Source of the DNA: Candidatus Spechtbacteria bacterium
Lineage (GTDB): Bacteria > Patescibacteriota > Minisyncoccia > Spechtbacterales > JACPHP01
NCBI GenBank assembly: GCA_016188605.1
Contig: JACPHP010000013.1
Span: forward strand, 2,846 to 66,845
Reading direction: 5' to 3'
DNA length: 64,000 nucleotides
Shown: piece by piece, positions 13,886-57,060 of the stretch
Numbering within the stretch: position 1 is the first letter of the stretch
Layout of the letters: each line of letters begins with the position of its first letter
The notes under the pieces: generated by a model
What the model was told of the DNA's origin: nothing
What the model saw: the letters and a program-made list of their open reading frames with translations, nothing else
Database searches by the model: none
Program-made: the position numbers and the translations under genes

Positions 13886-16600
13886 ATGCCAAAAGACACT
13901 CAGTCAGACAAACTTCCCCCGCAAAGTATTGAAGCAGAGCAGTCGGTTTTGGGCTGTTTAATGATTGATCGCGACGCGATATACAAAGTTTCCGATGCTT
14001 TGTTTGCCGATGATTTCTATCGCGGCACGCATCGCGGTATTTATTCTGCCATGGTTGGGTTATATGAGCGGCGAGAACCGATTGATATTGTCAGTCTTTC
14101 TCAACGTCTCAAAGAAGAAAATCGGCTAGAGGAAATCGGCGGGCACAGCTATCTTGCCGAACTGATTAATCGCGTGCCCACCGCGACTCACGTTGTGCAT
14201 TATGCAAATATCGTACGCCAAAAGCGCGTTTTGCGCGATTTAATTACCGCGGCATACGACATAGGCCAGCTTGGCTATCGTGAGGGCGATAATATTGACG
14301 AGCTGCTGGATGAAGCGGAAAAAAGAATTTTCCAAATTTCGCAGCACAGTCTTTCACAAACGTTTGTGCCGTTTAAGCAAGAATTAGAATCGGCATTTAA
14401 CCGCATTGACCAGCTTAATAATTATGACGGCACTTTGCGCGGTATGCCAACCGGTTTTCATGATCTTGATAATATACTCGCGGGACTGCAAAAATCTGAT
14501 CTCATTATTCTTGCTGCGCGCCCCAGCCGAGGAAAAAGTTCCCTCGCGCTTGATATTGCGCGCCAAGCGGCGTTACAGGCCAAGCAACCCGTCGGCTTGT
14601 TTAGCTTGGAAATGTCAAAAGACCAGCTAGTTGACCGTATGCTCGCGTCGCAGGGTTCTGTAGATCTTTGGCGTATTCGCACGGGCAAACTTTCTTCACA
14701 AGGAGAATACAATGATTTTACAAAATTGCAACATGCTCTGGATACTCTTTCGCAAGCACCAATTTTTATTGACGACGCGGCAAGCGCCAGTATGCTGCAA
14801 ATTCGTTCTATGTCGCGCAGGTTGCAGGCAGAGCGAGGACTCGGGCTGATTATTGTTGACTATTTGCAACTTATTCAACCACGCAATCCCAGCGACCCGG
14901 TAGTGCAACAGGTTACCGAAATTTCGCGTTCCTTGAAAGGACTGGCACGCGAGCTAAACGTGCCCGTGCTAGCGCTGTCGCAGCTGTCGCGCGCTGTAGA
15001 ACAAAGAGGCGGTTCCCCTCGCCTTTCGGATTTGAGAGATTCTGGATGTCTTGCTGGAGATATGCTTATTACACGCGCAGATACCGGAGAACGAGTTTAT
15101 ATCAAAGAGCTTGTCGGACAAAAAGATATTCCTGTTTTTACTCTCAACCAAGATCATAGGATTATTTCCACAAAAATAGAAAAAGTCTTTTCAAATGGCG
15201 TTAAAGAGATCTTTGAACTTAAAACCAAAACCGGACGAACTATTAAGGCTTCGTCTAATCACAAATTCTTTACGCTTCACGGCTGGCAGAGAATTGATGA
15301 ACTTGAACCAGGCGCTAGAATTGCTTTACCGCGCGCTTTAGAAATAAAAAAATCAAGCGCAGACCTTTCAAGAAACGAACTTACTCTACTTCCTCACCTC
15401 ATTGGCGATGGATGCATTTTACCGCGCCAACCTATGCACTATACAAGTGCCGATTGGGAGAACATACAGACCGTCGCGCAAGCTGCTGCAAATCTTTTTG
15501 GCATTTCGCCCCGCATAGTAAGGCAAAAAAATTGGTGGCATGTATATCTACCATCACCTTATCGTCTTACACGGGGCAAATATCACCCAATTACTTTATG
15601 GTACAAAAAGTTAGGGTTGGAGAGAGTGCGTTCCTACAATAAACAGATTCCTGTCGCGCTTTTCAATGCTTCGCCGGAGCAGATTTGTCTATTCCTCCAT
15701 CATTTATGGGCAACGGATGGAAATATTTCATGGAAAAAAATTGCAGGGAGAAAGCCGACTGCGGCAATTTATTACGCAACTTCCAGCAAACAACTTGCGC
15801 AAGATATTCAGCACCTTCTTTTGCGTATTGGGATTTGGAGCTCGTTAAGAAAAGTGTCTCAACATGATTATAGGTCAATGTATCATATTATTATTCAAAG
15901 CGCTCCCATACAACTCAAATTCCTTAAAACAGTAGGATGCGCCGGAGAACGCGGAAAAATAATTCCAAAACTTATTTCGGCATTACGCGCGATTTCACCT
16001 AATACAAATACCGACACTATCCCTAATGAAATTTGGGATATGCTAGTGGAACCTGAAAAAGAAAAAATTGGCATAAGCTGGCGTGGCGTGGCAAGGGGTA
16101 TGAACGTCGCCTATAACGGTTCGGCGCTTTTTGCAAGCGGCATGTCGCGGGAACGTTTGACGCGTGTCGCAACCGTCTTGTCCAGTAACGAGTTGCGCCA
16201 TTTTGCCGAATCTGATATTTATTGGGACGAGATTACTTCTATAACTCCATGTGGAAAAGAAGAGGTTTATGACGCAACTATTCCTGGTACGCATAATTTC
16301 GTAGCAAACGATTTTATTGTGCATAACAGCATAGAACAAGATGCCGACGTAGTTTTGTTTATTCATCGTGACGATAAAGACCAAGAGGACGCGGAGCGCA
16401 ATAACATCGCTGATATTATTGTCGCCAAACACCGCAATGGTCCGACAGGAAAAATTCAGCTTTACTTCGATGATAGAGTGGTTAGTTTTAAGAATCTAAC
16501 GAGCCAAGCCAGCGCGCCGCAAGAGCCAGTTGCTATGCCCTCGCCAACACCCAAAGAGACTTCGAATGAAGAGATTAGTTTAGAGGATTTTGAGATATAA
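13886..16600 (+). CDS. dnaB: Replicative DNA helicase DnaB interrupted by an intein
   Basis: DnaB N-domain (QSIEAEQSVLG) is followed by the RecA-like domain (ARPSRGKSS Walker A, IIVDYLQL). At the conserved LSDLRDSG site an insertion beginning CLAGDMLI and ending VHN|SIEQDADV (C-extein) interrupts the gene. The 904-aa product is about twice normal DnaB length. Confidence 0.9.
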   Translation: MPKDTQSDKLPPQSIEAEQSVLGCLMIDRDAIYKVSDALFADDFYRGTHRGIYSAMVGLYERREPIDIVSLSQRLKEENRLEEIGGHSYLAELINRVPTATHVVHYANIVRQKRVLRDLITAAYDIGQLGYREGDNIDELLDEAEKRIFQISQHSLSQTFVPFKQELESAFNRIDQLNNYDGTLRGMPTGFHDLDNILAGLQKSDLIILAARPSRGKSSLALDIARQAALQAKQPVGLFSLEMSKDQLVDRMLASQGSVDLWRIRTGKLSSQGEYNDFTKLQHALDTLSQAPIFIDDAASASMLQIRSMSRRLQAERGLGLIIVDYLQLIQPRNPSDPVVQQVTEISRSLKGLARELNVPVLALSQLSRAVEQRGGSPRLSDLRDSGCLAGDMLITRADTGERVYIKELVGQKDIPVFTLNQDHRIISTKIEKVFSNGVKEIFELKTKTGRTIKASSNHKFFTLHGWQRIDELEPGARIALPRALEIKKSSADLSRNELTLLPHLIGDGCILPRQPMHYTSADWENIQTVAQAAANLFGISPRIVRQKNWWHVYLPSPYRLTRGKYHPITLWYKKLGLERVRSYNKQIPVALFNASPEQICLFLHHLWATDGNISWKKIAGRKPTAAIYYATSSKQLAQDIQHLLLRIGIWSSLRKVSQHDYRSMYHIIIQSAPIQLKFLKTVGCAGERGKIIPKLISALRAISPNTNTDTIPNEIWDMLVEPEKEKIGISWRGVARGMNVAYNGSALFASGMSRERLTRVATVLSSNELRHFAESDIYWDEITSITPCGKEEVYDATIPGTHNFVANDFIVHNSIEQDADVVLFIHRDDKDQEDAERNNIADIIVAKHRNGPTGKIQLYFDDRVVSFKNLTSQASAPQEPVAMPSPTPKETSNEEISLEDFEI
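15047..16327 (+). mobile_element. Intein (about 427 aa) with LAGLIDADG homing-endonuclease domain inside dnaB
   Basis: N-terminal Cys (CLAGD), internal LLPHLIGDGC (LAGLIDADG-like), C-terminal HN followed by Ser of the extein. The intein is in frame, 1281 nt. Confidence 0.8.
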
Positions 16601-16720
16601 TCAATCTAAAATCTTAAATGGCAAATCTCAAAACTGAATCTTAAAACTCAAATCTTCGCTAGTAGTTTTACGATTTACGTTTTAGTTTTGAGATTTTAGT
16701 TTTGAGTTTTAACATTTTTT
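16601..16720. repeat. AT-rich word palindrome, CAAATCTCAAAT family
   Basis: Left arm A-rich (AATCTTAAATGGCAAATCTCAAAACTGAATCTTAAAACTCAAATCTTC). Right arm is its T-rich complement. Confidence 0.8.
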
Positions 16721-16723
16721 ACA

Positions 16724-20540: not shown

Positions 20541-20650
20541 TTTATTTATCGCAAATCTCAAATGGCAAAACTCAAATCGACATCGCAAATCTAAAATCTT
20601 CACAGTAGTTTTAAGATTTGAGTTGTAGTTTTGCGATTTAAGATTTGAAA
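20541..20650. repeat. AT-rich word palindrome, CAAATCTCAAAT family
   Basis: CGCAAATCTCAAATGGCAAAACTCAAATCGACATCGCAAATCTAAAATCTTC / AGATTTGAGTTGTAGTTTTGCGATTTAAGATTTGAAATTTGAG. Confidence 0.8.
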
Positions 20651-21282
20651 TTTGAGTTTCTTGTCGCAAAAACCCAGAACTTATACCCCACAAAGTTCCA
20701 TAGCAAAGAAAGAATGGTCGCTGCGAGAAACCCAACATTGTCCCAGCGAGTTTGAGAAAGCCCGCCCATTGCAGGAATGTAATTTACAAAAAGAGTCGCG
20801 ATGCCAACGTTAATTGCAAATCCTAATACGCTTACAACAACAAACTGCCCGAACTCTGTCGCGCCCCCACCGGCAGTTTTATGGAATGTCCAATATTTAT
20901 TCCAAAAATAACTGTTTATTACCGCAACTATAAAGCCGACTGCCTTAAAGCCCGACACTTCCCATCCCACTACGATGCTAGTGAAAAAGATTAAGCTGTT
21001 AGTCACGCCAAAATCAACAGCTGTGTTTAATACCCCAACAAGCGCGAATTTAGCTCCCTGATACGCGATTGAAATATATTTATTCAGCCAAAACGCGACA
21101 TATAGTCCGATAACCGAAAGAATTGGAAATACAAATGGCAGAGTGTTTGCAAATGGCAAATTAACCGCGATATTCTGCGCGATAAAATGAAATAAAACGG
21201 CGACAGCTTCACCGATGATTAAAGAGCCAACAATATCGCCCCAGCCGAAACGCTCCTGCATAACTTGAGTGTTGTTTTCCAT
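20638..21282 (-). CDS. GtrA-family membrane protein (polysaccharide synthesis associated)
   Basis: FALVGVLNTAVDFGVTNSL and further TM helices are typical of GtrA. Confidence 0.65.
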   Translation of the reverse strand: MENNTQVMQERFGWGDIVGSLIIGEAVAVLFHFIAQNIAVNLPFANTLPFVFPILSVIGLYVAFWLNKYISIAYQGAKFALVGVLNTAVDFGVTNSLIFFTSIVVGWEVSGFKAVGFIVAVINSYFWNKYWTFHKTAGGGATEFGQFVVVSVLGFAINVGIATLFVNYIPAMGGLSQTRWDNVGFLAATILSLLWNFVGYKFWVFATRNSNFKS

Positions 21283-25764: not shown

Positions 25765-26571
25765 GTGAAGGCTAGCGGTTCGATATGTAGGAGATTGGCG
25801 TCTGCGCGTAATTCTTACGCGGTGGAAATCTCTTTTGCGGCTGAGACCATAGGGCATCTCGGCGGACTCCCCATCACCAATAGTTTGTTAATGTCCTGGA
25901 TAACCATGGCTATTCTTTTTGTTGTTGGGCTTATGGTCGGATATCGTCCAACCCTTATTCCTGGACGCTTGCAGAATGCCTTTGAAATGATAATAGATAC
26001 TATGCTGAACTTTTTTGCAGAGATCATGGGATCCCGTAAAGAAGCGGAAAAGGTCTTTCCGATTGTTTTTACGTTTTTTATTTTCATTCTTCTATCTAAT
26101 TGGCTTGGTATTCTGCCTGGCATTGGCGCGATTGGATTTGAAGAAACAGCAGAAGGCGCGGAACATGGTACAAAGTTCATTCCCCTCTTGCGTTCTTCAT
26201 ATAGCGACCTTAATATGACCTTGGCGCTTGCGATTTGCTCGCTTGTGATAACTCATATTATAGGCATCAGCGCCATTGGTATCGGAAAGCATATCGGTAA
26301 ATTTATTTCTTTCAAGAGCCCCATGGCTTTTTTCGTGGGAATATTGGAAACCATAGCGGAGGTCGCGAAGATCCTTTCATTCTCGTTTCGATTGTTTGGT
26401 AATGTGTTCGCGGGTGAGGTTTTGCTTACTGTGATGCTGTTCTTAATGCCCTATATAGCGCCCGCACCATTTTTGGGAATGGAACTGTTTGTAGGATTTA
26501 TTCAAGCGCTAGTATTCTCTATGTTAACTTTGGTATTCATTAAAGTCGCTATGATGCAAACAGAGCATTAG
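25765..26571 (+). CDS. atpB: F0F1 ATP synthase subunit a
   Basis: Polytopic protein with a C-terminal conserved Arg region (LSFSFRLFGNVFAGEVLL). The true start may lie downstream of the listed ATG. Confidence 0.8.
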   Translation: MKASGSICRRLASARNSYAVEISFAAETIGHLGGLPITNSLLMSWITMAILFVVGLMVGYRPTLIPGRLQNAFEMIIDTMLNFFAEIMGSRKEAEKVFPIVFTFFIFILLSNWLGILPGIGAIGFEETAEGAEHGTKFIPLLRSSYSDLNMTLALAICSLVITHIIGISAIGIGKHIGKFISFKSPMAFFVGILETIAEVAKILSFSFRLFGNVFAGEVLLTVMLFLMPYIAPAPFLGMELFVGFIQALVFSMLTLVFIKVAMMQTEH

Positions 26572-26580
26572 TTTAAATTA

Positions 26581-26700
26581 AAAATTAAAAGTCAAAAATT
26601 TAAAATTATAGTATATACGTCGCGCGGAGCGCGCGACACCATAATTTTTCACTTTTCATTTTTAACTTTTAATTATCAGGATAATTTATTAATTAATTTC
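26581..26700. repeat. Composite palindrome: AT-rich arms around GC core GTCGCGCGGAGCGCGCGAC
   Basis: Lies between atpB and atpE. Confidence 0.7.
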
Positions 26701-26732
26701 ATGGCTTTCAATCATAATAAATAAATTGATAG

Positions 26733-26972
<240 letters not shown>

Positions 26973-26975
26973 TCG

Positions 26976-27056
26976 CTGCTAACCGCAAACCGACGACCGC
27001 ATACTGCCACTCGGCGACGGTTGACGGTTGGCGGTAGTCGGTCGACAGCATTAGCT
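26976..27056. repeat. ACCGAC/TACCGC-word palindrome (GC-type family)
   Basis: GCTAACCGCAAACCGACGACCGCATACTGCC...GGTTGGCGGTAGTCGGTCGACAGC, between atpE and atpF. Confidence 0.75.
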
Positions 27057-27566
27057 ATGTCCGAACTTCTCACAAGTCTTCACATCGATTGGCACATTCT
27101 GCTCGCGCAGATAGTGAATTTTTTGATTCTTCTTTTTTTGCTCGCCAAGTTTGCTTATAAACCAATAATTAAGCTTTTAAACGAACGTCGAAAGATGGTT
27201 GAAGATTCCGTTGAGCGCGCGCAGGCAATTGAACAAAAATTCCAAGAATTTAAGGAATATCGCGCTAAACAGCTTCAAGAAGTACGCAAAGAAGCCCAGC
27301 AGATACTAGTACAAGCGCATGAGTCAGCGGAAAAAGAAAAAGAAGATATTCTTGCCAAAACACGTAAACAGCTGGATGTACTTTTTACGCGAGCAGAAAA
27401 GCAAATTGAACAGCAAAAGGTTGAAATGGTGGCGAACGCGGAAAAAGAAATCGTAACCCTGCTTATTCCTTCGCTGACGCGAGTATTGAAAGATTCGGTA
27501 GACGAGCAGACGCAAAAGACTATTTTGGATCAAGCCGCAAGGCGCATTAAAACGATGTACTCGTAA
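27057..27566 (+). CDS. atpF: F0F1 ATP synthase subunit b
   Basis: Single N-terminal TM helix followed by a long charged helix. Start set at the ATG after the upstream palindrome. Confidence 0.8.
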   Translation: MSELLTSLHIDWHILLAQIVNFLILLFLLAKFAYKPIIKLLNERRKMVEDSVERAQAIEQKFQEFKEYRAKQLQEVRKEAQQILVQAHESAEKEKEDILAKTRKQLDVLFTRAEKQIEQQKVEMVANAEKEIVTLLIPSLTRVLKDSVDEQTQKTILDQAARRIKTMYS

Positions 27567-27690
27567 CAAAATCTCAAAATGCAAATCTCAAATCGCAAAA
27601 CTACAACTCAAATCGCAAAACTACGAACTGTGGCGATTTTAGATTTGCGATTTCGATTTGAGATTTAACATTTTAGATTTGAGATTAAAA
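27561..27690. repeat. AT-rich word palindrome, CAAATCTCAAAT family (atpF/atpH spacer)
   Basis: Read directly. Confidence 0.85.
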
Positions 27691-27691
27691 T

Positions 27692-28069
27692 ATGCAATAT
27701 TCTCCTCGTTTTTACGCCAAAGCATTAGTTGCTTCGCTAAAAGAAGTATCGCCAAAAGAGCAGGGCGCGATTATTAAGCGTTTTGCAAAAATGCTGGAAC
27801 AACAAAAAGCGCTTGGGCTAGCCAAGCAGATTTACGCGGCAGTAGAAACAGAGCTTGCAGAAGAGAAAAAAAAGAATACCGCAAGAATTGTCACCGTCAC
27901 TTCTCTATCCGAATCAGAAAAAAAGAAAATGAAAGAGCAATTTCCCGCGAAAGAATACGAATTTACTACAAATTCCGAATTGATTGGCGGGTTGGTGGTG
28001 CAGCATGGGACGAGGCTATATCAGGCAACTTTGCGGAAAATACTGGAGGGCTTAACCTCAAGTATTTAA
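27692..28069 (+). CDS. atpH: F0F1 ATP synthase subunit delta (short form)
   Basis: C-terminal ELIGGLVVQHGTRLYQATLRKILEGL resembles delta/OSCP. Only 125 aa. Position in the operon supports the call. Confidence 0.65.
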   Translation: MQYSPRFYAKALVASLKEVSPKEQGAIIKRFAKMLEQQKALGLAKQIYAAVETELAEEKKKNTARIVTVTSLSESEKKKMKEQFPAKEYEFTTNSELIGGLVVQHGTRLYQATLRKILEGLTSSI

Positions 28070-28080
28070 AAATATAATTA

Positions 28081-28210
28081 TAATACTAAATGTCAAAATC
28101 CAAATTACAAATGTCAAATCAATGTCAAAGTTCAAAAATCAAAAATTTTGACATTAAGTCATTTGGATTTCATTTGTAATTTGAAATTTGGACTTTGAAA
28201 TTTATTCGCT
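28081..28210. repeat. AT-rich word palindrome, TGTCAAA/TTTGACA subfamily; direct copy A (5' of atpA)
   Basis: About 97% identical over about 120 bp to 29771-29900. My alignment gives 3 substitutions and 1 indel. Confidence 0.9.
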
Positions 28211-28213
28211 ACT

Positions 28214-29770
28214 ATGGATTCCTTAATCCAAAAACTGCAAAAAGAATTAGAGGGATACAAATCTCCGACCATGGCTTCGGAGTCTGTTGGTCGTGTAGAA
28301 AAAATGTACGATGGAATTGCGATTTGCTCCGGCATTGACGAAGCGCTTGCTTCTGAAATGATCGAGATTTACCCGCGCACAGCCGGAAAAAATTCAGAAG
28401 ACGTAAAAGGCGCGCCGCTTTTTGGCCTCGCGCTTAATATTGAAGAAAGCCAGATCGGAGTCGTGGTGCTTGGTGATTACGCGCAAATCCAAGAGGGCGA
28501 TGTTGTAAAAACTACAAAACGCGTACTGGAAGTGCCTGTCGGCGAGGAGTTACTTGGCAATGTTGTAAATGCTCTGGGACAATCGCTTGAAAATAAAGCT
28601 TTAAATACTAAAACCCGCTACCCTGTTGAGCGTGTGGCGTCTGGCGTTATTAGCCGCGAGGCAGTTAACGAGCCAATACAAACAGGTATTAAAGCGATTG
28701 ATTCCATGATTCCTATCGGCCGCGGCCAGCGTGAGCTTATCATCGGTGACCGTCAAATTGGGAAAACCGCTCTCATCATAGACACCATCTTAAGCCAGCT
28801 CAATGAACCAGAAGACAAGCGTCCGTATTGTATTTATGTTGCTATCGGCCAAAAGGCATCCAAAGTTGCAAGGGTCGTGCAGACTCTGCGCGAGCGTGGA
28901 GCTATGGAATACACTATAGTAGTAGCTTCATTCTCGTCTGATCCCGCGGCTCTTTGGTATATCGCGCCTTACGCCGGATGCGCAATCGGCGAATATTTTA
29001 TGGACAAAGGCAAGGATGCGATTGTTTTTTACGACGATCTCACCAAGCACGCGTGGGCTTATCGCCAAATGTCACTTTTACTTCGCCGCCCGCCAGGTCG
29101 CGAGGCATATCCTGGCGATGTTTTCTATTTGCATTCTCGCCTACTTGAGCGTTCCGCAAAGCTTAACAAAGAACTTGGCGGCGGTTCGCTCACCGGTATT
29201 CCCGTAATTGAAACCCAATCGGGTGATGTGTCCGGCTACATTCCAACTAATGTTATTTCCATTACCGACGGCCAGATTTATCTTGAGCCAAACCTTTTCT
29301 ACAAAGGCATCCGCCCCGCGCTTAATGTCGGTCTTTCCGTGTCGCGCGTGGGTGCGGCGGCGCAAACAAAAGCAATGAAGAAAGTTGCGGGCAAACTTCG
29401 CCTGGAGCTTGCGCAGTATCGCGAACTTGCCGCTTTCGCGCAGTTTGGCTCTGATCTTGATGAGGCAACACAGAAACGATTGCGCCGCGGTGAAAGATTG
29501 AGTGAGCTGCTAAAGCAAGGCCAGTACGTCCCAATGGCTTGGTATAAGCAGACGCTTTCTATTTATGCCGGAGTAAATGGCTTACTAGACCAGGTGCCCG
29601 TGAGCGATGTTCAACGCTGGGAGAGCGAGTTTCATACATATTGCGATGCATACGCGGCTGATATGCTTGAAAAGATGAAAGAAAAGAGAGAGATTACGCC
29701 CGAGATTGATGAGCTGATTAAGGCGGCAATTATGGAGTTTAATGGACAGTTTGTGACTGGAAAACAATAG
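28214..29770 (+). CDS. atpA: F0F1 ATP synthase subunit alpha
   Basis: [10 protein letters not shown] (P-loop) and further conserved alpha regions. Length is 518 aa. Confidence 0.95.
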
Positions 29771-29900
29771 CTTACTAAATGTCAAAATCCAAATTACAAA
29801 TGTCAAATCAATGTCAAAGTTCAAAATTCAAAAATTTTGATATTAAGTCATTTGGATTTCATTTGTAATTTGACATTTGGACTTTGAAATTTTATTAGCT
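29771..29900. repeat. AT-rich word palindrome, direct copy B (3' of atpA)
   Basis: See 28081-28210. Confidence 0.9.
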
Positions 29901-29902
29901 TT

Positions 29903-30880
29903 ATGCCTATCTCCACTCGTGAAGTAAAAAATCGCCAGCGTTCCATTTTTAATATTCGCCAGGTTACAAAAGCCATGGAGATGGTTTCAGCATCCAAAAT
30001 GCGTAAAGCCCAAATGATTGCCTTACGCACTCGTCCGTATGCTTACAAGGCGCTGGAAATGCTCTCGCATTTAACCGCCGAAGAGATTGACCAAGAGATT
30101 GGAAACACTGGAAATATATTTATCGCGCCAAAGAATGCTTCTCCCGCAGAGCTTCTTCGCAATCCCAAGGGCAAGGTGCTTATAGTTGCCATAACGTCAG
30201 ACAAAGGACTTATCGGCGGCCTTAATGCCAACGTAATGAAAGAAACTTTGGCAATCGTTCGCCAGTATCAAAAACAAGATACGCTAGTGGAGCTAATTCT
30301 TGTTGGTGAAAAAAGCAAAGCATCGTTTCAGCGGCTGGGCGTGCCAATAGAAAAAGTTTTTACTGGCGCGGGAGACTACGCTACTACCGAGCAGACTATG
30401 CCTATCGCAGAACTTATTCGTAATAGATACGAGGCAGGCTGGGTTTCTCGCGTCGTAGTTGTGTATTCCGAATTTATTTCTACTTTGAAGCAGCGCGTCA
30501 CGCATCGTTTGTATCTTCCAGTAACGGCAAAAATTTTAAACGACGTGATTAATGACATTATTCCTCAAACCGGAAAGTTTTCCGAACTGCGAAACGAGGA
30601 GTATGCGACAGAAAAAACAATGCCAGATTTTACATACGAACCAAATAAACAAGAGCTTATTTCCACGCTAGTCCCCTTCTTTCTTGATTTGTACTTGTAT
30701 CATATTATTTTAGAATCTAATGCTTCAGAGCATTCAGCGCGCATGGTGGCAATGAAGAGCGCGTCGGATAACGCCAAAAACCTCCTTGATACACTGACAC
30801 TTACATATAATAAAGCGCGCCAAGCTGCTATTACGCGGGAAATTAGCGAAATTACGGCAGGCGTGGAGGCGATGAAATGA
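29903..30880 (+). CDS. atpG: F0F1 ATP synthase subunit gamma
   Basis: N-terminal REVKNRQRSIFNIRQVTKAMEMVSASKMRKAQ and C-terminal ITREISEITAGVEAMK are gamma-subunit helices. Confidence 0.9.
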   Translation: MPISTREVKNRQRSIFNIRQVTKAMEMVSASKMRKAQMIALRTRPYAYKALEMLSHLTAEEIDQEIGNTGNIFIAPKNASPAELLRNPKGKVLIVAITSDKGLIGGLNANVMKETLAIVRQYQKQDTLVELILVGEKSKASFQRLGVPIEKVFTGAGDYATTEQTMPIAELIRNRYEAGWVSRVVVVYSEFISTLKQRVTHRLYLPVTAKILNDVINDIIPQTGKFSELRNEEYATEKTMPDFTYEPNKQELISTLVPFFLDLYLYHIILESNASEHSARMVAMKSASDNAKNLLDTLTLTYNKARQAAITREISEITAGVEAMK

Positions 30881-32397
<1,517 letters not shown>

Positions 32398-32399
32398 CT

Positions 32400-32520
32400 A
32401 TCTCAAAACGCAAATCTTAAATCGCAAAACTAAAACTCAAATCTGAAAACTACGGCGAAGATTTTAGATTTGCGATTCAGATTTGAGATTTGCCATTTGA
32501 GATTTTAGCTTTATTTATGC
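32400..32520. repeat. AT-rich word palindrome; direct copy A (5' of atpC)
   Basis: About 96% identical over about 108 bp to 32755-32880 (4 substitutions). Confidence 0.9.
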
Positions 32521-32753
32521 ATCTAACCATTCTCAACCTAAACGAAACCCTCTACGATGGCGAAGCAAGCGGCATCACTGCCCCTGGTACTGTTGGTGAG
32601 TTTACCGTACTTCCCCATCATATAGACCTTTTAACGTCTCTTAAAAAAGGCGTAATTACCGTGCATACAAAAGGCGTGGAAAAAACCTATATTGAAGCCC
32701 CGCGCGGCGGGATTTTTGAGCTGGCGGGTGAGAAGGCGACTATACTGTTGTAA
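32517..32753 (+). CDS. atpC: F0F1 ATP synthase subunit epsilon (N-terminal beta-sandwich only)
   Basis: LNLNETLYDGEASGITAPGTVGEFTVLPHHIDLLTSL is epsilon-like. Start taken at the ATG after the upstream palindrome. The C-terminal helical hairpin is absent. Confidence 0.7.
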   Translation: MHLTILNLNETLYDGEASGITAPGTVGEFTVLPHHIDLLTSLKKGVITVHTKGVEKTYIEAPRGGIFELAGEKATILL

Positions 32754-32754
32754 T

Positions 32755-32880
32755 CTCAAAATGTAAATCTTAAATCGCAAAACTAAAACTCAAATCTGAA
32801 AACTACGGCGAAGATTTTATATTTGCGATTCAGATTTGAGTTTTGCCATTTGAGATTTTAGATAAAATAGTAATTTAACT
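32755..32880. repeat. AT-rich word palindrome; direct copy B (3' of atpC)
   Basis: See 32400-32520. Confidence 0.9.
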
Positions 32881-32886
32881 AATTCT

Positions 32887-33339
32887 ATGGAAAAACAAGA
32901 AACCAAAATAATCCCCGTATCTCATGAATTATTGAGCAGCCACTCCTGCCCCGCCACAGTCGTAATGTGCATGGATTTTCGCTTTGTTAAGGCAACGCAG
33001 GAATTTGTGCAAAAAAACCTTGCAACTCCAAATTTTGATTTGTTGATTGCACCCGGTTGCATAAAGGGCTTGCTTCAAGAAGGCACGCTAAAAAATTATT
33101 TGTTGGAAAATATAGCGCTATCAATCAAGCTGCATCTTACGCATGAGTTAGTCCTAGTCTGCCACTCCACTTGCGGCGCATACGGCATCCCGGATAGGGC
33201 GCAAGAACACGAACAGCAAGAAAAAGATCTCGCCGAGGCCGCAAAAATCCTAACAGAATCATTCCCATCGCTTTCTATTCATGCTTGTATTGCAAACGGT
33301 GATGCGGAGAAAGAAGAAATAGTATACGAAAATATATAA
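32887..33339 (+). CDS. Hypothetical protein with beta-carbonic-anhydrase-like zinc-ligand motifs
   Basis: CMDFR (C-x-D-x-R) and HSTCGA (H-x-x-C-G) are spaced as in beta-CA, but the protein is only 150 aa and lacks other beta-CA blocks. Confidence 0.3.
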   Translation: MEKQETKIIPVSHELLSSHSCPATVVMCMDFRFVKATQEFVQKNLATPNFDLLIAPGCIKGLLQEGTLKNYLLENIALSIKLHLTHELVLVCHSTCGAYGIPDRAQEHEQQEKDLAEAAKILTESFPSLSIHACIANGDAEKEEIVYENI

Positions 33340-33344
33340 CAACT

Positions 33345-33373
33345 TAAACAAAAAATCCCGCTTAGGCGGGATT
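33345..33373. terminator. Bidirectional hairpin terminator
   Basis: AAAAAATCCCGCTTAGGCGGGATTTTTTG is a perfect stem flanked by A- and T-runs, between convergent genes. Confidence 0.7.
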
Positions 33374-34003
33374 TTTTGTTTCTATTTTTACTTCTTTATT
33401 CAACAACGGCAGAATCACCGGCCTCGCCGCTTCCAGCGCATATCTGCGGTGAGTGATTTTTGCTTCTTCTTCCAGCGGAAGCTCGCCTAATGTTTTGCCC
33501 AGCTCCGGCATGTAGAAAATTGTGCGAAAGGGATAGCCGGAAATGCGCATCGGGACTGGCTCTGTGGTGATGTAACCGTTAAGCCGGCCTTCAAAAGTTG
33601 GGGTTTCTTTAATTTCTTTTAGCGCAAAGGCAATCTCAACCACAAAATGCGCCGTGCGCTTTTCCTGTGGCACACCATCTAACTTTTTGAGTGTTAGCGC
33701 AATCAATTCTTCATCCGTTGCTTCATGGCCGGGCCAGCGGCGTGAATATATTCCTGGCTCGCCGTTAAGATAGTCAATTTCAATTCCCCCATCATCAGCC
33801 AACGTAGGCAAACCGCTAAGCGCGAAATAAAACTGCGCTTTTTTTATTGCATTTTCCTTGAACGTCTTTCCATCCTCCTCACATTTTTTATCACCAAGAC
33901 CAACATCATTCAAAGATAAAAGCTCGCATCCCCAGTCGCGCAAAAGGATGCGATATTCTTCCAGTTTTCCATTGTTGGTTGTGGCGATTAAGAGTTTCAT
34001 CAC
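33362..34003 (-). CDS. rdgB: Non-canonical purine NTP pyrophosphatase (RdgB/Ham1 ITPase)
   Basis: LLIATTNNGKLEE and DDGGIEIDYLNGEPGIYSRR are Ham1 family motifs. Confidence 0.8.
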   Translation of the reverse strand: MMKLLIATTNNGKLEEYRILLRDWGCELLSLNDVGLGDKKCEEDGKTFKENAIKKAQFYFALSGLPTLADDGGIEIDYLNGEPGIYSRRWPGHEATDEELIALTLKKLDGVPQEKRTAHFVVEIAFALKEIKETPTFEGRLNGYITTEPVPMRISGYPFRTIFYMPELGKTLGELPLEEEAKITHRRYALEAARPVILPLLNKEVKIETKNPA

Positions 34004-35589: not shown

Positions 35590-35700
35590 GTTATTGCCAA
35601 CCGTTCCATTGCCCCTTCATTGCTCCATTGTTTCATTGTCTTATGGTTACACAAACAATGAATCAATGGAGCAATGGAGCAATGAAGCAATGTAAGCTGG
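35590..35700. repeat. Word-based palindrome (word CATTGCTCCATTG)
   Basis: GTTCCATTGCCCCTTCATTGCTCCATTGTTTCATTG ... CAATGAATCAATGGAGCAATGGAGCAATGAAGC. Lies in the divergent lysS / greA-like promoter region. Confidence 0.8.
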
Positions 35701-36988: not shown

Positions 36989-38941
36989 TCAACGTGTGGA
37001 CAAAGGATGCGCCTCGTTATATTTTTGCAAAATATCTCGCGTAACATACACTGCTTCCGCGCTTTCTCCTCCTCTCTCCATCATAACCAAAATAACAAGC
37101 CGAGGATTATCATATGGCGCGAACCCCACAAACCACGCATGGTTGTCACCGGCAGTTGCTTGCGCCGTTCCAGTTTTGCCCGCCATATTAAACGGCAAAA
37201 CTCTCAAAGATTGGCTGGATCCTGAAGTTACAGCCATACGCATGCCTTCTTGCACCACTTTATAAATATCTGACGAAAAAGGAAGGGTTCGCCGCGCCCA
37301 GTTCAAAACAGTATCTTGAATACTACTAACAACATGGGGAATAAAATATGTGCCGCTATTTGCAATTGAAGAAATACTCGCCGCTACTTGAAGCGGCGTC
37401 GCTATCACATCCCCCTGCCCTATGCTTGCGTGATAAGTATTCCCAATAAACCAATCCTCGCCCTTTGATTTTTTCTTCCATTGTGGCGATGGTACAAAGC
37501 CATTCCCCTCGCCGGGTAAATCAATGCCTGTTTTAAATCCCCAATTGAATATTTGTAAATATTTAGCTATACGATCAATGCCTAGACCTTGTTGGCCCAT
37601 ATAACCACCGCCGATAATATAAAAATACACATCCGACGATACTGCGAGGGCTTTACGCATATCTACGGGTCCATGATTCTTCCAATCTAAAAATGTATAG
37701 CTTACGGAAGGATCGTATATGCTTGGGACTGTAATAGAGCCGCGAGTCTCAATAATCTTGTTAGGATCTATCACATGCTCTTGCAGTGCCGCCGCGGCAA
37801 GAAGTGGCTTAATAACCGAACCGCTCGGATACGATCCTGCCGTAGCACGATTAATAAATGGATTTGATGAATCATTAATAAGCGCGTTATATTCATCGTA
37901 GTTAATGCCTTTTACGAAGCTGTTGGGGTCAAAGCTCGGCAGGCTAACAAGCGCGCGCACAGCGCCGTCTTTAGGATCAATAGCAACGACGCTTCCTGCT
38001 TTCAAGTCCCTTTCTTTAAGCGCGGCTGATAAAGTATCGTACGCGATTTTCTGCAGATCTATATCAATCGTCGTATTAACTGTCTGCCCTTTTTGGGGTT
38101 GAGAAATTACCCGTTCGCCTAAAGTTTGCCCTTTGGCATTGATAAAATTTGCCGCCATGCCGGGTACTCCACGCAATTCTTTTTCATAAGTCAATTCAAG
38201 ACCATATTTTCCAATCCGATCATCCGCGATATAATTTACGTCATTGTACTTAAAAAGCTCGTTGGGAGTAATGGGAGCAGTATAGCCCAAGACATGCGCG
38301 GTATATAATCCGTACGGATAATAGCGCATAGGATGCTCGCGAAATGCAATGCCGACAATATCACCGATTTGCCCTTGAATCACGCTCACTTCCTCAATAG
38401 AAAGATTGCGAGCAAGAATAGCGCGGGCAATATTTTTTTGTTTCACGTCATCAATTTTTGTTTGAATTATTTTAGCTCCGTCTTCATTTCGGCCAAGCGC
38501 TTGCGCCAACACGCTAATCTGCTCTTGTGTTGCCTTCATGTCTTTGGGTCGTAATTCCACATCAAACCCTGAAATACTTGTAGCCAGAACCCTTCCCTTG
38601 TAATCGAAAATATCCCCGCGGGGCGCTTGTAGGGTAAACGTCCTCTCCGCGTTTTGCGCCGCCATCGTGGCATATTTTCCACCCTGGCCAAAATTTAAAT
38701 ATACAACATACAAAAATAAAAATAAAAAAATAGCAAATGTAACCAATTGAATCGCGATCGGAATAAAATTAGGCGTCGAAATTTCCAATTTTTTTTCTTG
38801 TTCGTAAGATGAATCTTTATCCAGAACAAATGATGCGTCGGGGAATATTTCCTCGGGCTCAATTGATTCTTTGCTTTGACTAATAGTGCCAAGGGAATCA
38901 AGACTATTTTTTCGGTGGAAGAACATTATATTTAATCTCAA
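36989..38941 (-). CDS. mrdA: Penicillin-binding protein 2 (peptidoglycan D,D-transpeptidase)
   Basis: N-terminal TM helix, SVIKP (SxxK), SSD-like motif and KTGTAQ (KTG). Lies adjacent to mreB. Confidence 0.8.
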   Translation of the reverse strand: MRLNIMFFHRKNSLDSLGTISQSKESIEPEEIFPDASFVLDKDSSYEQEKKLEISTPNFIPIAIQLVTFAIFLFLFLYVVYLNFGQGGKYATMAAQNAERTFTLQAPRGDIFDYKGRVLATSISGFDVELRPKDMKATQEQISVLAQALGRNEDGAKIIQTKIDDVKQKNIARAILARNLSIEEVSVIQGQIGDIVGIAFREHPMRYYPYGLYTAHVLGYTAPITPNELFKYNDVNYIADDRIGKYGLELTYEKELRGVPGMAANFINAKGQTLGERVISQPQKGQTVNTTIDIDLQKIAYDTLSAALKERDLKAGSVVAIDPKDGAVRALVSLPSFDPNSFVKGINYDEYNALINDSSNPFINRATAGSYPSGSVIKPLLAAAALQEHVIDPNKIIETRGSITVPSIYDPSVSYTFLDWKNHGPVDMRKALAVSSDVYFYIIGGGYMGQQGLGIDRIAKYLQIFNWGFKTGIDLPGEGNGFVPSPQWKKKSKGEDWFIGNTYHASIGQGDVIATPLQVAASISSIANSGTYFIPHVVSSIQDTVLNWARRTLPFSSDIYKVVQEGMRMAVTSGSSQSLRVLPFNMAGKTGTAQATAGDNHAWFVGFAPYDNPRLVILVMMERGGESAEAVYVTRDILQKYNEAHPLSTR

Positions 38942-39100
38942 ATCTTAAATCACAAATTTCAAATCTAAATCTTAAATGTAAAATCTTCGACGTCAGATTA
39001 AAAGTTTTTCCGCCAGAGGCGCCTGCCCGCCTCTGGCGGGGATCAGCCTTTGGCTGAGAAATTTGAGTTTCAGTTTTGCGATTTAAGATTTGATATTTTA
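38931..39100. repeat. Composite element: AT-word arms plus GC core (RC of CCGCCAGAGGCGGGCAGGCGCCTCTGGCGG and TCAGCCAAAGGCTGA); inverted near-identical copy of 48480-48600
   Basis: The central 100 bp match the reverse complement of 48480-48600 almost base for base. Lies between mrdA and mreB. Confidence 0.9.
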
Positions 39101-39102
39101 GA

Positions 39103-40155
39103 TTATCTTGGTGCCTTCTGAAAATCTGTTGTCACCAAAACATCGTGCAGCTTATCAATATTTTCAAGCACAACACCGGTACCGCGAGCGACTGCAGTTA
39201 AAGGGTCTTCCGCGATTACAACGGGCATCATAGTTTTTTCTGATACAAGTTCATCTAAACGCCTTAGCAACGACCCTCCGCCTGCAAGGATAATACCGCG
39301 CTTCATAATATCCGCGAGCAATTCAGGTGGAGTTTCTTCTACCGTTGATTTAATCGCGCCAACAATCGCGTCAATAGACGACGCGAGAGCTCTGCGTACA
39401 TGATCGTCATTAATAACAATTTCTTTTGGCAGACCTGTTACAAGGTCGCGCCCGCGCATCGTGGCCTCCAACGGCTCGCTAAGCGGCAAAGCCGAGCCAA
39501 TCTCAATCTTAATATCTTCAGCGGTGCGTTCGCCCAAAAGCAAATTAAACTCTTCGCGAGCGTAATGAATAATATCCTCATTAAGTTTATCTCCCGCGAC
39601 GCGCAAACTCCGCGCTCTTACAATGCCGCCAAGCGAGATGACCGCGACTTCCGTAGTTCCTCCGCCAATATCCACGATAATATTACCTGCTGCCTCCTGC
39701 ACGGGCAGGCGCGCGCCAATTGCCGCGGCCATGGGTTCCTCCATCAAAAAAACTTCTCTCGCGCCAGCGTTGCTTGCCGCATCCTCCACTGCGCGTTTTT
39801 CTACTTCGGTTACGCCATAAGGAATTGCGATAACTACGCGCGGACGAGGAAAAATAGAGAAAAAATCGCTATGCACTTTTTCAATAAAATACCGAAGCAT
39901 CTGCTCGGTAATTTCAAAATCGGAAACAACACCATCCACAAGCGGACGGCAAGCAACAATATGCGCGGGAGTTTTACCCACCATTCTGCGCGCATCCTCG
40001 CCAATTGCAAGAATCCTGCCAGTTTTTTTGTTAATCGCGACAACAGAGGGCTCATTGATTACAATCCCCTTACCCCGTACATAAACGAGGGTGTTGGCGG
40101 TTCCCAAATCTATGCCGATGTCTTTTGAAAATTTACCCCAAAGTTTGTCTAACAT
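39103..40155 (-). CDS. mreB: Rod-shape determining protein MreB
   Basis: IGIDLGTANTLVYVRGKGIV and actin-fold ATPase motifs. Length is 350 aa. Confidence 0.9.
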   Translation of the reverse strand: MLDKLWGKFSKDIGIDLGTANTLVYVRGKGIVINEPSVVAINKKTGRILAIGEDARRMVGKTPAHIVACRPLVDGVVSDFEITEQMLRYFIEKVHSDFFSIFPRPRVVIAIPYGVTEVEKRAVEDAASNAGAREVFLMEEPMAAAIGARLPVQEAAGNIIVDIGGGTTEVAVISLGGIVRARSLRVAGDKLNEDIIHYAREEFNLLLGERTAEDIKIEIGSALPLSEPLEATMRGRDLVTGLPKEIVINDDHVRRALASSIDAIVGAIKSTVEETPPELLADIMKRGIILAGGGSLLRRLDELVSEKTMMPVVIAEDPLTAVARGTGVVLENIDKLHDVLVTTDFQKAPR

Positions 40156-44446: not shown

Positions 44447-44460
44447 AATCTATAGATTTA

Positions 44461-44570
44461 TCAAAAGTATACTCGCGAATATAAAAGAATACAGAATTGA
44501 GAATACGGAATACAGGAACCGCGTCCCTGTATTCTTTATTCTGTATTCTTTATTCTAATTCCCGCGTACT
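44461..44570. repeat. Word-based palindrome (word GAATACAGAAT), second locus
   Basis: GAATACAGAATTGAGAATACGGAATACAGGAACCGCGTCCCTGTATTCTTTATTCTGTATTCTTTATTC. Confidence 0.85.
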
Positions 44571-48433: not shown

Positions 48434-48449
48434 AGCTGAATCTGATAAA

Positions 48450-48640
48450 TTATCTTATCTTAAAACGCAAATCTAAAATGGCAAAACTAAATCTCAAAAT
48501 TCTCAGCCAAAGGCTGATCCCCGCCAGAGGCGGGCAGGCGCCTCTGGCGGAAAAACTTTTAATCTGACGTCGAAGATTTTACATTTAAGATTTAGATTTG
48601 AGATTTGCCATTTGAGATTTAAGATAATAACTGATTCTAT
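48450..48640. repeat. Composite element (AT-word arms, TCAGCCAAAGGCTGA, core hairpin CCGCCAGAGGCG-GGCAG-GCGCCTCTGGCGG); 3' of the second mreB
   Basis: Read directly. Core is identical to 49716-49760 and to the reverse complement of 39010-39050. Confidence 0.9.
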
Positions 48641-49650
48641 TTGCGTGCCATGACGCTTCGTTTGTATATTTCAAGATTTTCAAGCGCGATGCCAGTACCT
48701 TTCACCACGCAGAGCAAAGGTTCCTCAGCGATATAGGCGGGAACACCGGTTGCTTCCGCAAGCAGCGCGTCAATGTTGCGCAGCATTGCTCCACCTCCGG
48801 AAATAATCATGCCGCGATCCATCACGTCTGCTGAAAGTTCCGGTGGTGTTTCACGGAGCACAGATTTCACAGCATTTATAATTTCTTTCATCTGTTCTGA
48901 TATTGCAAAAGTAATTTCATTTGATTTTATGTCCACAATTCTAGGCAGACCCGTCACAAGATCTCTCCCGCGAACTTCATAATGTTCTTCTTTTTTCTGC
49001 GGCACCGCGGAGCCAATGCGAATTTTAATATCTTCCGCGCTGCGCTCGCCAATTGCAAGATTATATATCGCTTTCATATACTGCGTGATTGTTTGATCGA
49101 TTTTATCGCCTCCAACCCGCACTGAAGCTACAGACACAATACCGCCAAGTGAAATTATTGCTACTTCCGTCGTTCCGCCACCAATATCAACAATCATATT
49201 TCCGGCAGGTGAATTAATGGGTATACCCGCACCAATAGCAGCCAAAATTGGCTCTTTAACCACATAGACAGCTTTAGCTCCTGCTTTTAGTGACGCTTGA
49301 ATTACTGCGCGCCGTTCTGTGGAAGTAATCCCGGCGGGCACAGACACCATCACCTCTGGCTTGAATAGCCGCACTCTACCACTTGCTTTATTGATAAAAT
49401 AGCGCAGCATGGCTTCTGTAACGCGGTAATCTGCAATAACACCGTCCTTCAGCGGACGGTGTGCCACAATTGTTTCTGGAGTGCGCCCTATCATTTCCCG
49501 CGCTTCCAGCCCCACTGCAAGAACAGTGTTGTCTTCAAGTGATACGGCAACAACCGACGGCTCATTTGCGATAATTCCAAGCCTAGGCACGAAAACAAGG
49601 CTATTAGCCGTGCCAAGATCTATACCAATTCTTGTTGGAGAGAAAAACAT
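48637..49650 (-). CDS. MreB/Mbl-like actin homolog (second paralog)
   Basis: RIGIDLGTANSLVFV and DIGGGTTEVAI are actin-fold motifs. About 45% identical by eye to the mreB at 39103. Confidence 0.85.
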   Translation of the reverse strand: MFFSPTRIGIDLGTANSLVFVPRLGIIANEPSVVAVSLEDNTVLAVGLEAREMIGRTPETIVAHRPLKDGVIADYRVTEAMLRYFINKASGRVRLFKPEVMVSVPAGITSTERRAVIQASLKAGAKAVYVVKEPILAAIGAGIPINSPAGNMIVDIGGGTTEVAIISLGGIVSVASVRVGGDKIDQTITQYMKAIYNLAIGERSAEDIKIRIGSAVPQKKEEHYEVRGRDLVTGLPRIVDIKSNEITFAISEQMKEIINAVKSVLRETPPELSADVMDRGMIISGGGAMLRNIDALLAEATGVPAYIAEEPLLCVVKGTGIALENLEIYKRSVMARK

Positions 49651-49660
49651 ATCAATCTCA

Positions 49661-49840
49661 AAATGTAAATCTCAAATGGCAAAACTAAAATCTGAATCGC
49701 AAATCTTCAGCCTGAGGCTGATCCCCGCCAGAGGCGGGCAGGCGCCTCTGGCGGAAAAATACCGTAGTTCGTAGTTTTTAGATTTGAGTTGTAGTTTTAC
49801 GTTTTGCGATTTGAGCTTTAAGATATAATATCAAAATAGT
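49661..49840. repeat. Composite element with the same GC core; 5' of the second mreB
   Basis: The core TCAGCCTGAGGCTGATCCCCGCCAGAGGCGGGCAGGCGCCTCTGGCGGAAAAA is shared with 48480-48600. Confidence 0.9.
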
Positions 49841-49841
49841 A

Positions 49842-53732: not shown

Positions 53733-53806
53733 GTTGATTACTGCCGATCGCCTACCGACTACCGTCGTTAAGCGGTTTGCGGTAGACGGTAAGCGGTAGT
53801 CAATTA
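53733..53806. repeat. ACCGAC/TACCGC-word palindrome (rplM/rplQ spacer)
   Basis: CTGCCGATCGCCTACCGACTACCGTCG ... GCGGTAGACGGTAAGCGGTAGTC. Confidence 0.75.
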
Positions 53807-54154: not shown

Positions 54155-54159
54155 ATTTA

Positions 54160-54221
54160 TTACTGCTGACCGCATACCGTCAACCGACTACTGTCGTCGG
54201 TAAACGGTTGTCGGTTAGCTG
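54160..54221. repeat. ACCGAC/TACCGC-word palindrome (rplQ/rpoA spacer)
   Basis: CTGCTGACCGCATACCGTCAACCGACTACTGTCGTCGGTAAACGGTTGTCGGTTAGC. Confidence 0.7.
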
Positions 54222-55887: not shown

Positions 55888-55956
55888 AAAATATAAAATT
55901 TAAATCTCAACCCTTAAAGTAATTTTGAGTTTTGAGATTTGCATTTTGAGATTTAT

Positions 55957-56930: not shown

Positions 56931-57060
56931 TAATTTAAATTTCAAAATCCAAATGTCAAATTACAAATGAATGTCAAAATCTAAAGTTTAAAATTTTGAT
57001 ATTGATCATTTGAACTTGATTTGACATTTGAAATTTAGACTTTGACATTTTGCATTTTAC
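56931..57060. repeat. AT-rich word palindrome, TGTCAAA/TTTGACA subfamily, third (diverged) copy
   Basis: Related to the atpA-flanking copies. Lies in the rpsM/rpmJ spacer. Confidence 0.8.

Follow-up and report, generated by a model that had tools for sequence, protein, structure and literature searches.

Near-identical heptamer-armed palindromes flanking atpC and atpA in the ATP synthase operon of a Candidatus Spechtbacteria genome

We analysed a 64,000-nt stretch of a metagenome-assembled genome (MAG) of a Candidatus Spechtbacteria bacterium (GenBank assembly GCA_016188605.1, contig JACPHP010000013.1, positions 2,846 to 66,845 of the forward strand; hereafter the window), in which the ATP synthase genes atpC and atpA are each flanked by two near-identical direct copies of a palindromic element of about 110 nt. 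The reading we favour, with a probability of roughly 0.5, is that the copies around atpC (A4 and A5) and those around atpA (B1 and B2) are recent copies within a genome-wide palindrome family, which would have arisen by short-range copy-and-paste into a previously compact junction. Element copies were compared within the window, and 'closest relative' is used in that sense throughout.

The element pairs at atpC and atpA

The atpC pair is a direct repeat of 109 nt (32400-32508 and 32753-32861, start-to-start spacing 353 nt) in which 105 of 109 positions match, the mismatches lying at 32409, 32411, 32467 and 32488. Identity drops sharply outside the ends of A4 and A5, with 1/10 and 4/10 matches in the adjoining 10 nt, and A5 begins on the final base of the atpC stop codon. 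Each copy is a long imperfect hairpin whose 45-nt arms are 76% complementary; in A4 the arms are 32400-32444 and 32459-32503 and the fold has -34.5 kcal/mol (z = -5.9). Compared with shuffled sequence, A4 and A5 fold with z-scores of -3.8 to -5.9 on either strand. An earlier, sequence-only reading of this DNA had described atpC as bracketed by direct copies about 96% identical with four differences, which is borne out, whereas its position for the second copy (32757-32864) yields just 15 matches in 108; the correct range, 32754-32861, lies 3 nt away.

The atpA pair is closer still: B1 and B2 (28084-28203 and 29773-29892) match at 117 of 120 positions with a start spacing of 1689 nt, in agreement with the same reading, which had listed atpA as a second gene between near-identical direct copies. 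Its third case, the second mreB gene (mreB-2), does not belong with the other two. The flanks of mreB-2 (48457-48626 and 49655-49825; elements A8 and A9) are 76-78% identical, chiefly via a common GC-rich insert (93% identical, family D10), and the closer twin of A8 (48457-48625) is A6 (38935-39103), which is inverted, 9.5 kb away and 90-92% identical (91.7% over 169 nt). Thus 'in all three cases' is wrong, and the arrangement holds for atpC and atpA. A6 and A8 each lie directly downstream of an mreB paralogue, and the coding DNA of the paralogues is far more diverged.

When the 13 members of the two element families (A and B) were compared in a global identity matrix, only three pairs exceeded 82%: A4-A5 (96%, direct), B1-B2 (98%, direct) and A6-A8 (90%, inverted). 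The best match of A4/A5 outside the pair is the inverted copy A2 (20545-20647; 90-92% local and 82% global identity). In the alignment A2 is next in similarity to A4/A5, followed by A3 and then A1, and A2, A4 and A5 align without gaps. We also considered A4 as a truncated copy, but the common tail of A5 and A2 beyond the A4/A5 identity does not stand out from shuffled sequence (P = 0.75).

The copies and their small differences are genuine, because independent assemblies (Logan contigs from other sequencing runs, retrieved by exact-protein look-ups) are 100% identical to the window and reproduce the copy-specific variants of A4, A5, B1 and B2 on their own unique flanks. The A4-specific C32409 and C32411 are joined to atpD in one contig (L001), the A5-specific T32820 and T32841 to Pro_CA_2 in four contigs from different runs and eight samples (L096-L099), and the B1-specific A28185 to atpA in a further contig (L088). 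Contigs L096-L099 begin at 32790, where the first 31-mer takes in the A5-specific T32820, and L088 ends at 29802, at the last 31-mer unique to the left flank of B2. Short-read assemblies do break at these elements, as would be expected had the assembler collapsed or misplaced a repeat in the MAG. However, of the four element-side contig ends checked, three (the two of L088 and the one at which L096-L099 start) sit exactly at the k = 31 uniqueness limit, and with each variant found on its unique flank in contigs of several other runs, the probability of such an artefact is close to nil.

Since the Pfam alignment of the atpC product starts at residue 1 and profile position 1 when translation begins at ATG 32517 (PF02823, ATP-synt_DE_N; E = 3.8e-18, residues 1-77 corresponding to profile positions 1-76), this comparison supports ATG 32517 as the true start and the longer open reading frame (ORF), from TTG 32490 within A4, as an over-extension. 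The sequence-only reading had arrived at the same start, while giving the upstream codon as an ATG. Exact-protein look-ups of AtpC with either start returned no record. The longest ORF of atpF also starts inside a heptamer element (TTG 27021); its true start is probably a downstream ATG at about 27057. In the window lineage and in two relatives the epsilon subunit is cut down to its beta-sandwich domain of 78-93 aa (32517-32753 in the window, 9420-9701 in contig L092 and 9383-9637 in contig L094), the C-terminal helical hairpin being missing.

Copying, conversion and the origin of the pairs

When all 50 intergenic regions of the window were compared (1225 pairs, 49 of them neighbour pairs) and ranked by similarity, the first three pairs included two of immediate neighbours (permutation p = 0.005) and the first five included three (p = 0.0004). 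Because neighbour pairs are enriched among the most similar pairs, these sequence comparisons support local copying. The flanking copies are also each other's closest relatives at atpC (96%) and at atpA (98%), against at most 82% global identity to other members; for mreB-2 this fails. Bracketing of a gene is not a rule: of about 17 genes having heptamer elements at both sides, just two lie between near-identical copies, and adjacent junctions mostly carry members of different heptamer families. Nor is copying strictly local, since the A6/A8 pair is inverted, non-flanking and 9.5 kb apart. Of the mechanism offered by the sequence-only reading, copying or conversion acting locally, the local component stands on these statistics and on the comparison with relatives, while a strictly local or gene-bracketing process does not.

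In the closest available genomes (AtpD 79-80% identical, named Spechtbacteria among them) gene order is kept and the junctions are compact. In L094, with the gene order of the window, atpD runs 4 nt into atpC and a spacer of 14 nt separates atpC from Pro_CA_2, and in L092 the atpD/atpC gap is 42 nt; the corresponding window gaps at atpD/atpC and atpC/Pro_CA_2 are 119 and 133 nt. No heptamer region was found at the atp loci of these relatives, and no orthologous element was found in close relatives, the best AtpD identities being 75% among species-representative genomes and 80% in the protein database. The best AtpC match in JGI metagenomes was 48%. Three high-scoring AtpD matches (P0002-P0004) were set aside as longer proteins from unrelated compact operons. 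Because the nearest relatives have compact, element-free junctions, the elements are recent gains specific to this lineage, and such gain rules out decayed ancient terminators, in keeping with the sequence-only reading, which had argued against independent decay of this kind.

We propose that an element already resident in one junction was duplicated 353 or 1689 nt away into a neighbouring, formerly compact junction, after which the copies would have gained three or four point substitutions. Our preferred candidate agents are template switching at a hairpin-stalled replication fork or a transposase encoded elsewhere in the genome. When the element is subtracted, 10 nt (A4) or 12 nt (B2) are left between stop and start, with no older resident visible. 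Polarising the A4/A5 differences on A2 and A3 assigns one to A4 and two to A5 and leaves the fourth ambiguous, a pattern that simple divergence after duplication would produce.

Insertions into essential operons may be tolerated if the folded transcript hides the element from coupled translation, as folding would keep the stop codon and the next start as close as in a compact junction. Predicted folds of 18 co-directional junctions are consistent with this idea. The outermost predicted pair lies 0-17 nt past the upstream stop codon in 17 of the 18 (35 nt at 44447-44535), and in the predicted fold 4-49 nt (median about 15) of the interval from this stop to the following start codon are left unpaired.

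Alternatively, both junctions could have held diverged residents that were homogenised by short-range, non-reciprocal recombination. Nearly every junction is occupied, so a resident partner is plausible, long identity runs between family members could seed recombination, the neighbour-enriched similarity is what intrachromosomal conversion predicts, and no target-site duplication was found. Against this, identity reaches the element ends and falls to background within 10 nt, whereas partners about 80% identical should leave unconverted edges; the residual junctions of 10-12 nt at A4 and B2 hold no heptamer remnants; and neighbouring junctions usually carry different families and hence offer no starting homology. 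We therefore treat gene conversion as a possible but less likely account and favour copy-and-paste into a compact junction, a choice that the data do not decide.

Several observations weigh against short-range copy-and-paste. No target-site duplication above chance was detected in the 13 elements, the best flanking direct repeats being 3-6 nt long. No transposase, Y1_Tnp or REP-associated tyrosine transposase (RAYT; REP, repetitive extragenic palindromic sequence) match was found in a Pfam scan of the window ORFs other than lysS and atpE, in which eight short or unassigned ORFs had no Pfam match. Locality was judged within 64 kb, and a closer copy of A4 or B1 elsewhere would alter the picture. 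A6/A8, which rank as most similar in the window (91.7% over 169 nt), are neither adjacent nor direct. With four and three differences, the two pairs stay compatible with gene conversion, and tolerance by folding would suit any gap-filling palindrome. A TAGCTT repeat at B2, which would restore a TAGCTTTATG junction, was rejected as a target-site duplication, repeats of at least 6 nt arising by chance with a probability of about 0.09 per element in composition-matched flanks; a flanking repeat of 6 nt was seen at no other element.

Direct orientation and near identity would also result if an element and its gene had been duplicated as a tandem segment and the second copy of the gene had then been lost exactly. 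Such a history needs a pair of precise events at atpC and another at atpA, neither gene has left any trace of a second copy, identity ends exactly at the element ends, and the junction sequence outside the elements amounts to only 10-25 nt. We consider this route highly improbable.

Heptamer arms, operon junctions and RNA-level function

The arms of the elements are arrays of six to eight imperfect heptamer units. The unit reads approximately AAATCTN in one arm and is the complement of this in the other, with two inverted arrays per element and a lag-7 identity of 0.55-0.8 between units. In a scan of self-identity at lags 2-12, lag 7 gave 20 regions in the window at the threshold of at least 0.62, compared with 0-2 at any other lag, and 7 was the best period for about 28 of the 48 intergenic gaps. 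A strict detector, which demanded an inverted partner as well as periodic arms, counted 18 elements in the 64 kb, and a broader count gave about 29 junctions. The heptamer differs by family (AAATCTC, AAATGTC, ACGAATA, GAATACA, TACCGC, AATTAAA and CCAATGA), and one further family has an 8-nt period. When one arm is slid by 7 nt the complementarity is still 0.60-0.71, as compared with 0.66-0.80 in the best register and about 0.30 off phase. Since sliding by 7 nt retains most of the complementarity, the arms are arrays of a consensus unit and not strict mirror images. The A-family ends, AATCTCAAA ... TTTGAGATT, are conserved and complementary, a trivial consequence of the palindrome.

Other features of the families were noted. 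Of the 10 A copies, 8 (A1, A2, A3, A4, A5, A7 and A9 among them) have a GTAGTTTT / AAAACTAC motif at the edge of the loop, for example AAAACTAC at 32450-32457. Many REPs are tagged by GTAG, but here the motif is single in each element and is not terminal. Only three A-family elements carry in their loops a double hairpin, GC-rich and about 47 nt long, CAGCCAAAGGCTG plus CCGCCAGAGGCG...CGCCTCTGGCGG, at 39003-39061 (reverse complement), 48497-48555 and 49701-49759, all adjoining mreB paralogues. The double hairpin had no match in viral contigs or Rfam, and a phage origin was rejected, as both this insert and the A-arm pattern are absent from viral contigs. The only perfect heptamer run is intragenic: four tandem copies of GAATACA lie in frame at 47813-47840 within a GT4 glycosyltransferase gene (47279-48433, minus strand) and encode ...QQNTEYRIQNTGAK... 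in the linker between its two Pfam domains. Hairpins made of the GAATACA heptamer are found at 8496-8584 and at 44484-44556. The divergent gap between lysS and a gene with the GreA C-terminal domain only is occupied by a palindrome of 8-nt period (35615-35687), which has CATTGCTC-like units and a 92% complementary core.

A heptamer palindrome is present at every junction of the atp operon (atpB, atpE, atpF, atpH, atpA, atpG, atpD, atpC, Pro_CA_2), and every junction of the ribosomal alpha operon (53733-56538, minus strand; rpsM, rpsK, rpsD, rpoA, rplQ, then rplM) has a heptamer-arm hairpin. A few elements are in divergent gaps, and A2 lies within a coding 3' end, its left arm (20638-20665) supplying a GtrA-like gene (20638-21282) with its six final codons (NSNFKS) and its stop codon. 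The coordinates of the elements and genes discussed here are collected in Table 1.

Table 1. Palindromic elements and associated genes of the window
Feature	Coordinates	Strand	Basis or relation
A1, A family, dnaB/recR junction	16598..16721		alignment
A2, inverted, 12 kb from A4/A5, next-closest relative	20545..20660		gapless alignment
AATTAAA-type heptamer palindrome, atpB/atpE junction	26575..26674		arms 81-88% complementary; lag-7 0.74
A3, A family, atpF/atpH junction	27566..27689		alignment; 75-82% identical to A4/A5
B1, AAATGTC-type heptamer palindrome, atpH/atpA junction	28084..28203		117/120 vs B2
atpA, alpha subunit, between B1 and B2	28214..29770	+	Pfam families
B2, copy of B1, atpA/atpG junction	29773..29892		117/120 vs B1
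TACCGC-type heptamer palindrome, atpG/atpD junction	30881..30995		lag-7; fold -56.2 kcal/mol, z -7.8
atpD, beta subunit	31006..32397	+	Pfam families; 100% match to Spechtbacteria MAG protein
A4, upstream copy, atpD/atpC junction	32400..32508		direct repeat, hairpin fold
atpC, ATP synthase epsilon, 78 aa, beta-sandwich domain only	32517..32753	+	Pfam PF02823
A5, downstream copy, atpC/Pro_CA_2 junction	32753..32861		direct repeat, fold
Pro_CA_2, putative carbonic anhydrase, last gene of atp unit	32887..33339	+	Pfam PF20393
Canonical bidirectional intrinsic terminator (A-tract, GC stem, T-tract), end of atp unit	33346..33381		16 pairs, both strands; perfect 16-nt arms
A6, composite A-family element, nested GC-rich hairpin, mreB-1/PBP2 junction	38930..39105		alignment
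A8, composite element downstream of mreB-2	48455..48630		alignment
A9, composite element upstream of mreB-2	49650..49830		76-78% identical to A8
B3, distant B-family member	56933..57052		sequence alignment; 78-81% identical

The elements are intercistronic and not terminal, since a terminator scan of 26000-34000 flagged no heptamer element and a canonical terminator follows the last atp gene. We accordingly rejected them as intrinsic terminators: their stems are AT-rich, 45-70 nt long and about 73% paired, and they stand between cistrons with a separate terminator downstream. Promoters inside the elements were rejected as well, 17 promoter-like sites being found where 14.0 +/- 3.9 are expected.

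As the hairpins lie directly past cistron stop codons in operons for multi-subunit complexes, they could resemble one another from equal need, acting as signals by which RNA is processed, stabilised or attenuated, whether through selective RNA processing and stabilisation, as RNase III sites or as weak terminators. The arrangement recalls the stoichiometry-setting stem-loops of Clostridium cellulolyticum (PMC4423207), and the folds are far stronger than those of shuffled sequence, with z-scores of -3.5 to -8.3 in 16 of the 18 junctions (A2, -1.5; A7, -2.5). However, same-family members in the same operon are only 75-82% identical, so no particular sequence is required; elements also occur in divergent, promoter-side gaps and at one coding 3' end; close relatives run the same operon without them; and the terminator scan leaves them unflagged, with a canonical terminator downstream.

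The pairing itself gives no sign of RNA-level selection. The arms are about 73% paired, with mostly non-wobble mismatches, and the 237 mismatches tallied across 20 elements show no G.U bias on the transcribed strand (33 G.U-type, 40 A.C-type). Which strand has the lower minimum free energy is unrelated to the direction of the genes, and neither strand folds consistently better. Strand-specific RNA selection was rejected on these strand energies and on the equal frequency of G.U-type and A.C-type mismatches. Five A copies show weak covariation (in 5 of 36 pairs, with a covariation term of +1.48 kcal/mol), and copy-to-copy identity (96-98%) lies far above arm-to-arm complementarity (about 73%). 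Because copy identity so exceeds arm complementarity, with no G.U bias and weak covariation, recent copying and not selection for pairing is indicated. We regard functional constraint as an unlikely source of the likeness; in our analysis an mRNA processing or stabilising role of the hairpins is possible but would be secondary, if there is any. In Rfam, only three tRNAs reach the gathering score in the window, and nothing meaningful appears in 48400-49900 at E up to 1.

Elsewhere in the window, perfect GC-rich palindromes with 3-nt loops at 745-791, 1747-1789 and 63517-63555 are probably ordinary terminators. The interval 1239-1991 (753 nt) has no ORF of at least 60 aa and no Rfam match, and the DnaB helicase gene (13886-16600) carries an intein with a LAGLIDADG homing-endonuclease domain. 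AtpD of the window is 100% identical to the NCBI protein 'F0F1 ATP synthase subunit beta' of a Candidatus Spechtbacteria MAG.

Relation to described repeats and to other Patescibacteria

The closest described kinds are palindromic repeats of the REPIN (REP doublets forming hairpins) and MITE (miniature inverted-repeat transposable element) types and heptamer tandem repeats. MITE-like palindromes such as the Correia, ERIC/IRU and RUP elements and the Rickettsia palindromic elements (RPEs) are imperfect palindromes of 100-180 nt with complementary termini, intergenic or 3'-terminal in genes and co-transcribed, in all of which the window elements are like them. RPEs supply codons to genes, and A2 likewise gives the C-terminal codons of a gene. 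Unlike MITEs, the window elements have no target-site duplication above chance, no cognate transposase was seen, and their arms are heptamer-periodic; terminal inverted repeats are present in the A family, though trivially so from its palindromy.

REPINs consist of two conserved REP units (16-40 nt; 20-40 nt with a GTAG or CGTC head in the definition applied here) inverted around a spacer, are each tied to a RAYT gene, which encodes a Y1 HUH transposase and has copies of the repeat at its sides, and are regarded as non-autonomous mobile DNA (PMC3116915). The window elements resemble them in being extragenic, about 100 nt long and hairpin-forming, in occurring in many copies and several flavours per genome, and in forming near-identical local clusters (PMC3116915). 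Instead of a conserved 16-mer or REP ends, however, they have register-degenerate 7-nt arrays, and the ORFs scanned in the 64 kb gave no RAYT match. Moreover, near-identical local clusters of REPINs are tandem arrays that include flanking sequence (PMC3116915), whereas the near-identical copies in the window lie in successive operon junctions with a gene between them.

Cyanobacterial short tandemly repeated repetitive sequences (STRRs) are heptanucleotide tandem repeats. Among long repeat units, those of 7 nt are the most frequent in many prokaryotic genomes, and the TAACTGA repeats of Beggiatoaceae and Cyanobacteria form intergenic 7-nt arrays, often by start codons (PMC4679880). Two published ideas address the 7-nt unit: that the polymerase slips in steps of about 7 nt, and that each cold-shock protein binds a single heptamer (cited in PMC4679880). 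The window elements share the intergenic arrays of 7-nt period. Heptanucleotide repeats, however, are direct arrays of one near-perfect unit, only one indirect repeat having been noted among those of BOGUAY (PMC4679880), whereas the window has inverted, hairpin-forming arrays of imperfect units, and whole 110-nt elements are copied as units.

The RNase III sites of phage T7 are one example of intercistronic processing stem-loops. In the cip-cel operon of C. cellulolyticum, intercistronic stem-loops of selective RNA processing and stabilisation set subunit stoichiometry without stopping downstream transcription; like the window elements they are stable, lie directly 3' of cistrons in operons for multi-subunit complexes and have no U-tract (PMC4423207). 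Those stem-loops are unique and locus-specific, and their processing has been demonstrated, in contrast to the window elements, which form repeat families, are absent in close relatives and show no sign of RNA-level selection.

Repetitive hairpin-forming elements are also carried by Volvox organelles, and we know of no heptamer periodicity reported for organelle hairpin repeats. In sponge mitochondria such elements occupy intergenic spacers, and they share with the window elements the invasion of spacers of compact genomes by palindromes in some lineages and not in their relatives (PMC2800124), although hosts and sequences are different. Tandem interspaced guide RNA (TIGR) arrays, known together with Tas proteins from bacteria of the candidate phyla radiation and phages, consist of 36-nt units in tandem, which contain two spacers along with edge and loop repeats, beside a Nop-domain Tas gene (PMC12045711). 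We rejected them as a match: the window period is 7 and not 36, the elements are single and dispersed, and the Pfam scans gave no Nop-domain protein. In the literature covered, which leaves out most subscription journals, we found no description of heptamer-arm hairpins in Patescibacteria.

The heptamer-arm architecture was found with unrelated heptamers at five other Patescibacteria loci (L006, L016, L018, L026 and L073) and at none of the non-Patescibacteria loci compared. In L073 (1646-8013), six of seven atp junctions and the gap after atpC have a hairpin with arms of roughly 7-nt repeats, and a CTAATNN family occurs at atpE/atpF and atpF/atpH, flanking atpF, and at atpG/atpD, its members being 77-84% identical. 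From these sequences, the architecture appears to recur between lineages while the sequence does not. It is tempting, if doubtful, to see in heptamer-arm, register-degenerate palindromes an undescribed class of self-propagating intergenic DNA in Patescibacteria. Such a class would have arisen repeatedly with unrelated 7-nt units in different lineages (the window MAG and the five loci above), would grow by 7-nt slippage and palindrome-templated correction, and would spread over short ranges without a dedicated transposase into essential operon junctions, where hairpin-restored proximity of stop and start would make it tolerable.

In practical terms, the elements fragment short-read assemblies, in which contigs stop at the elements or within them, in many cases exactly where k-mers cease to be unique, and they mislead gene callers into extending starts into them, as at atpC and atpF. 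The broader pattern, register-degenerate heptamer palindromes in essential operon junctions that recur elsewhere with other sequences, is of more interest than the atpC pair itself. Patescibacteria are seen as streamlined and tightly packed, yet this lineage has palindromes of about 110 nt at nearly every operon junction, and relatives at 80% AtpD identity without them provide a natural before and after for the invasion of essential operons by selfish or neutral DNA. The recurrence of a 7-nt architecture with unrelated sequences points to a mechanism dependent on geometry and not on sequence, and bears on the old question of why heptamer repeats are common in prokaryotes.

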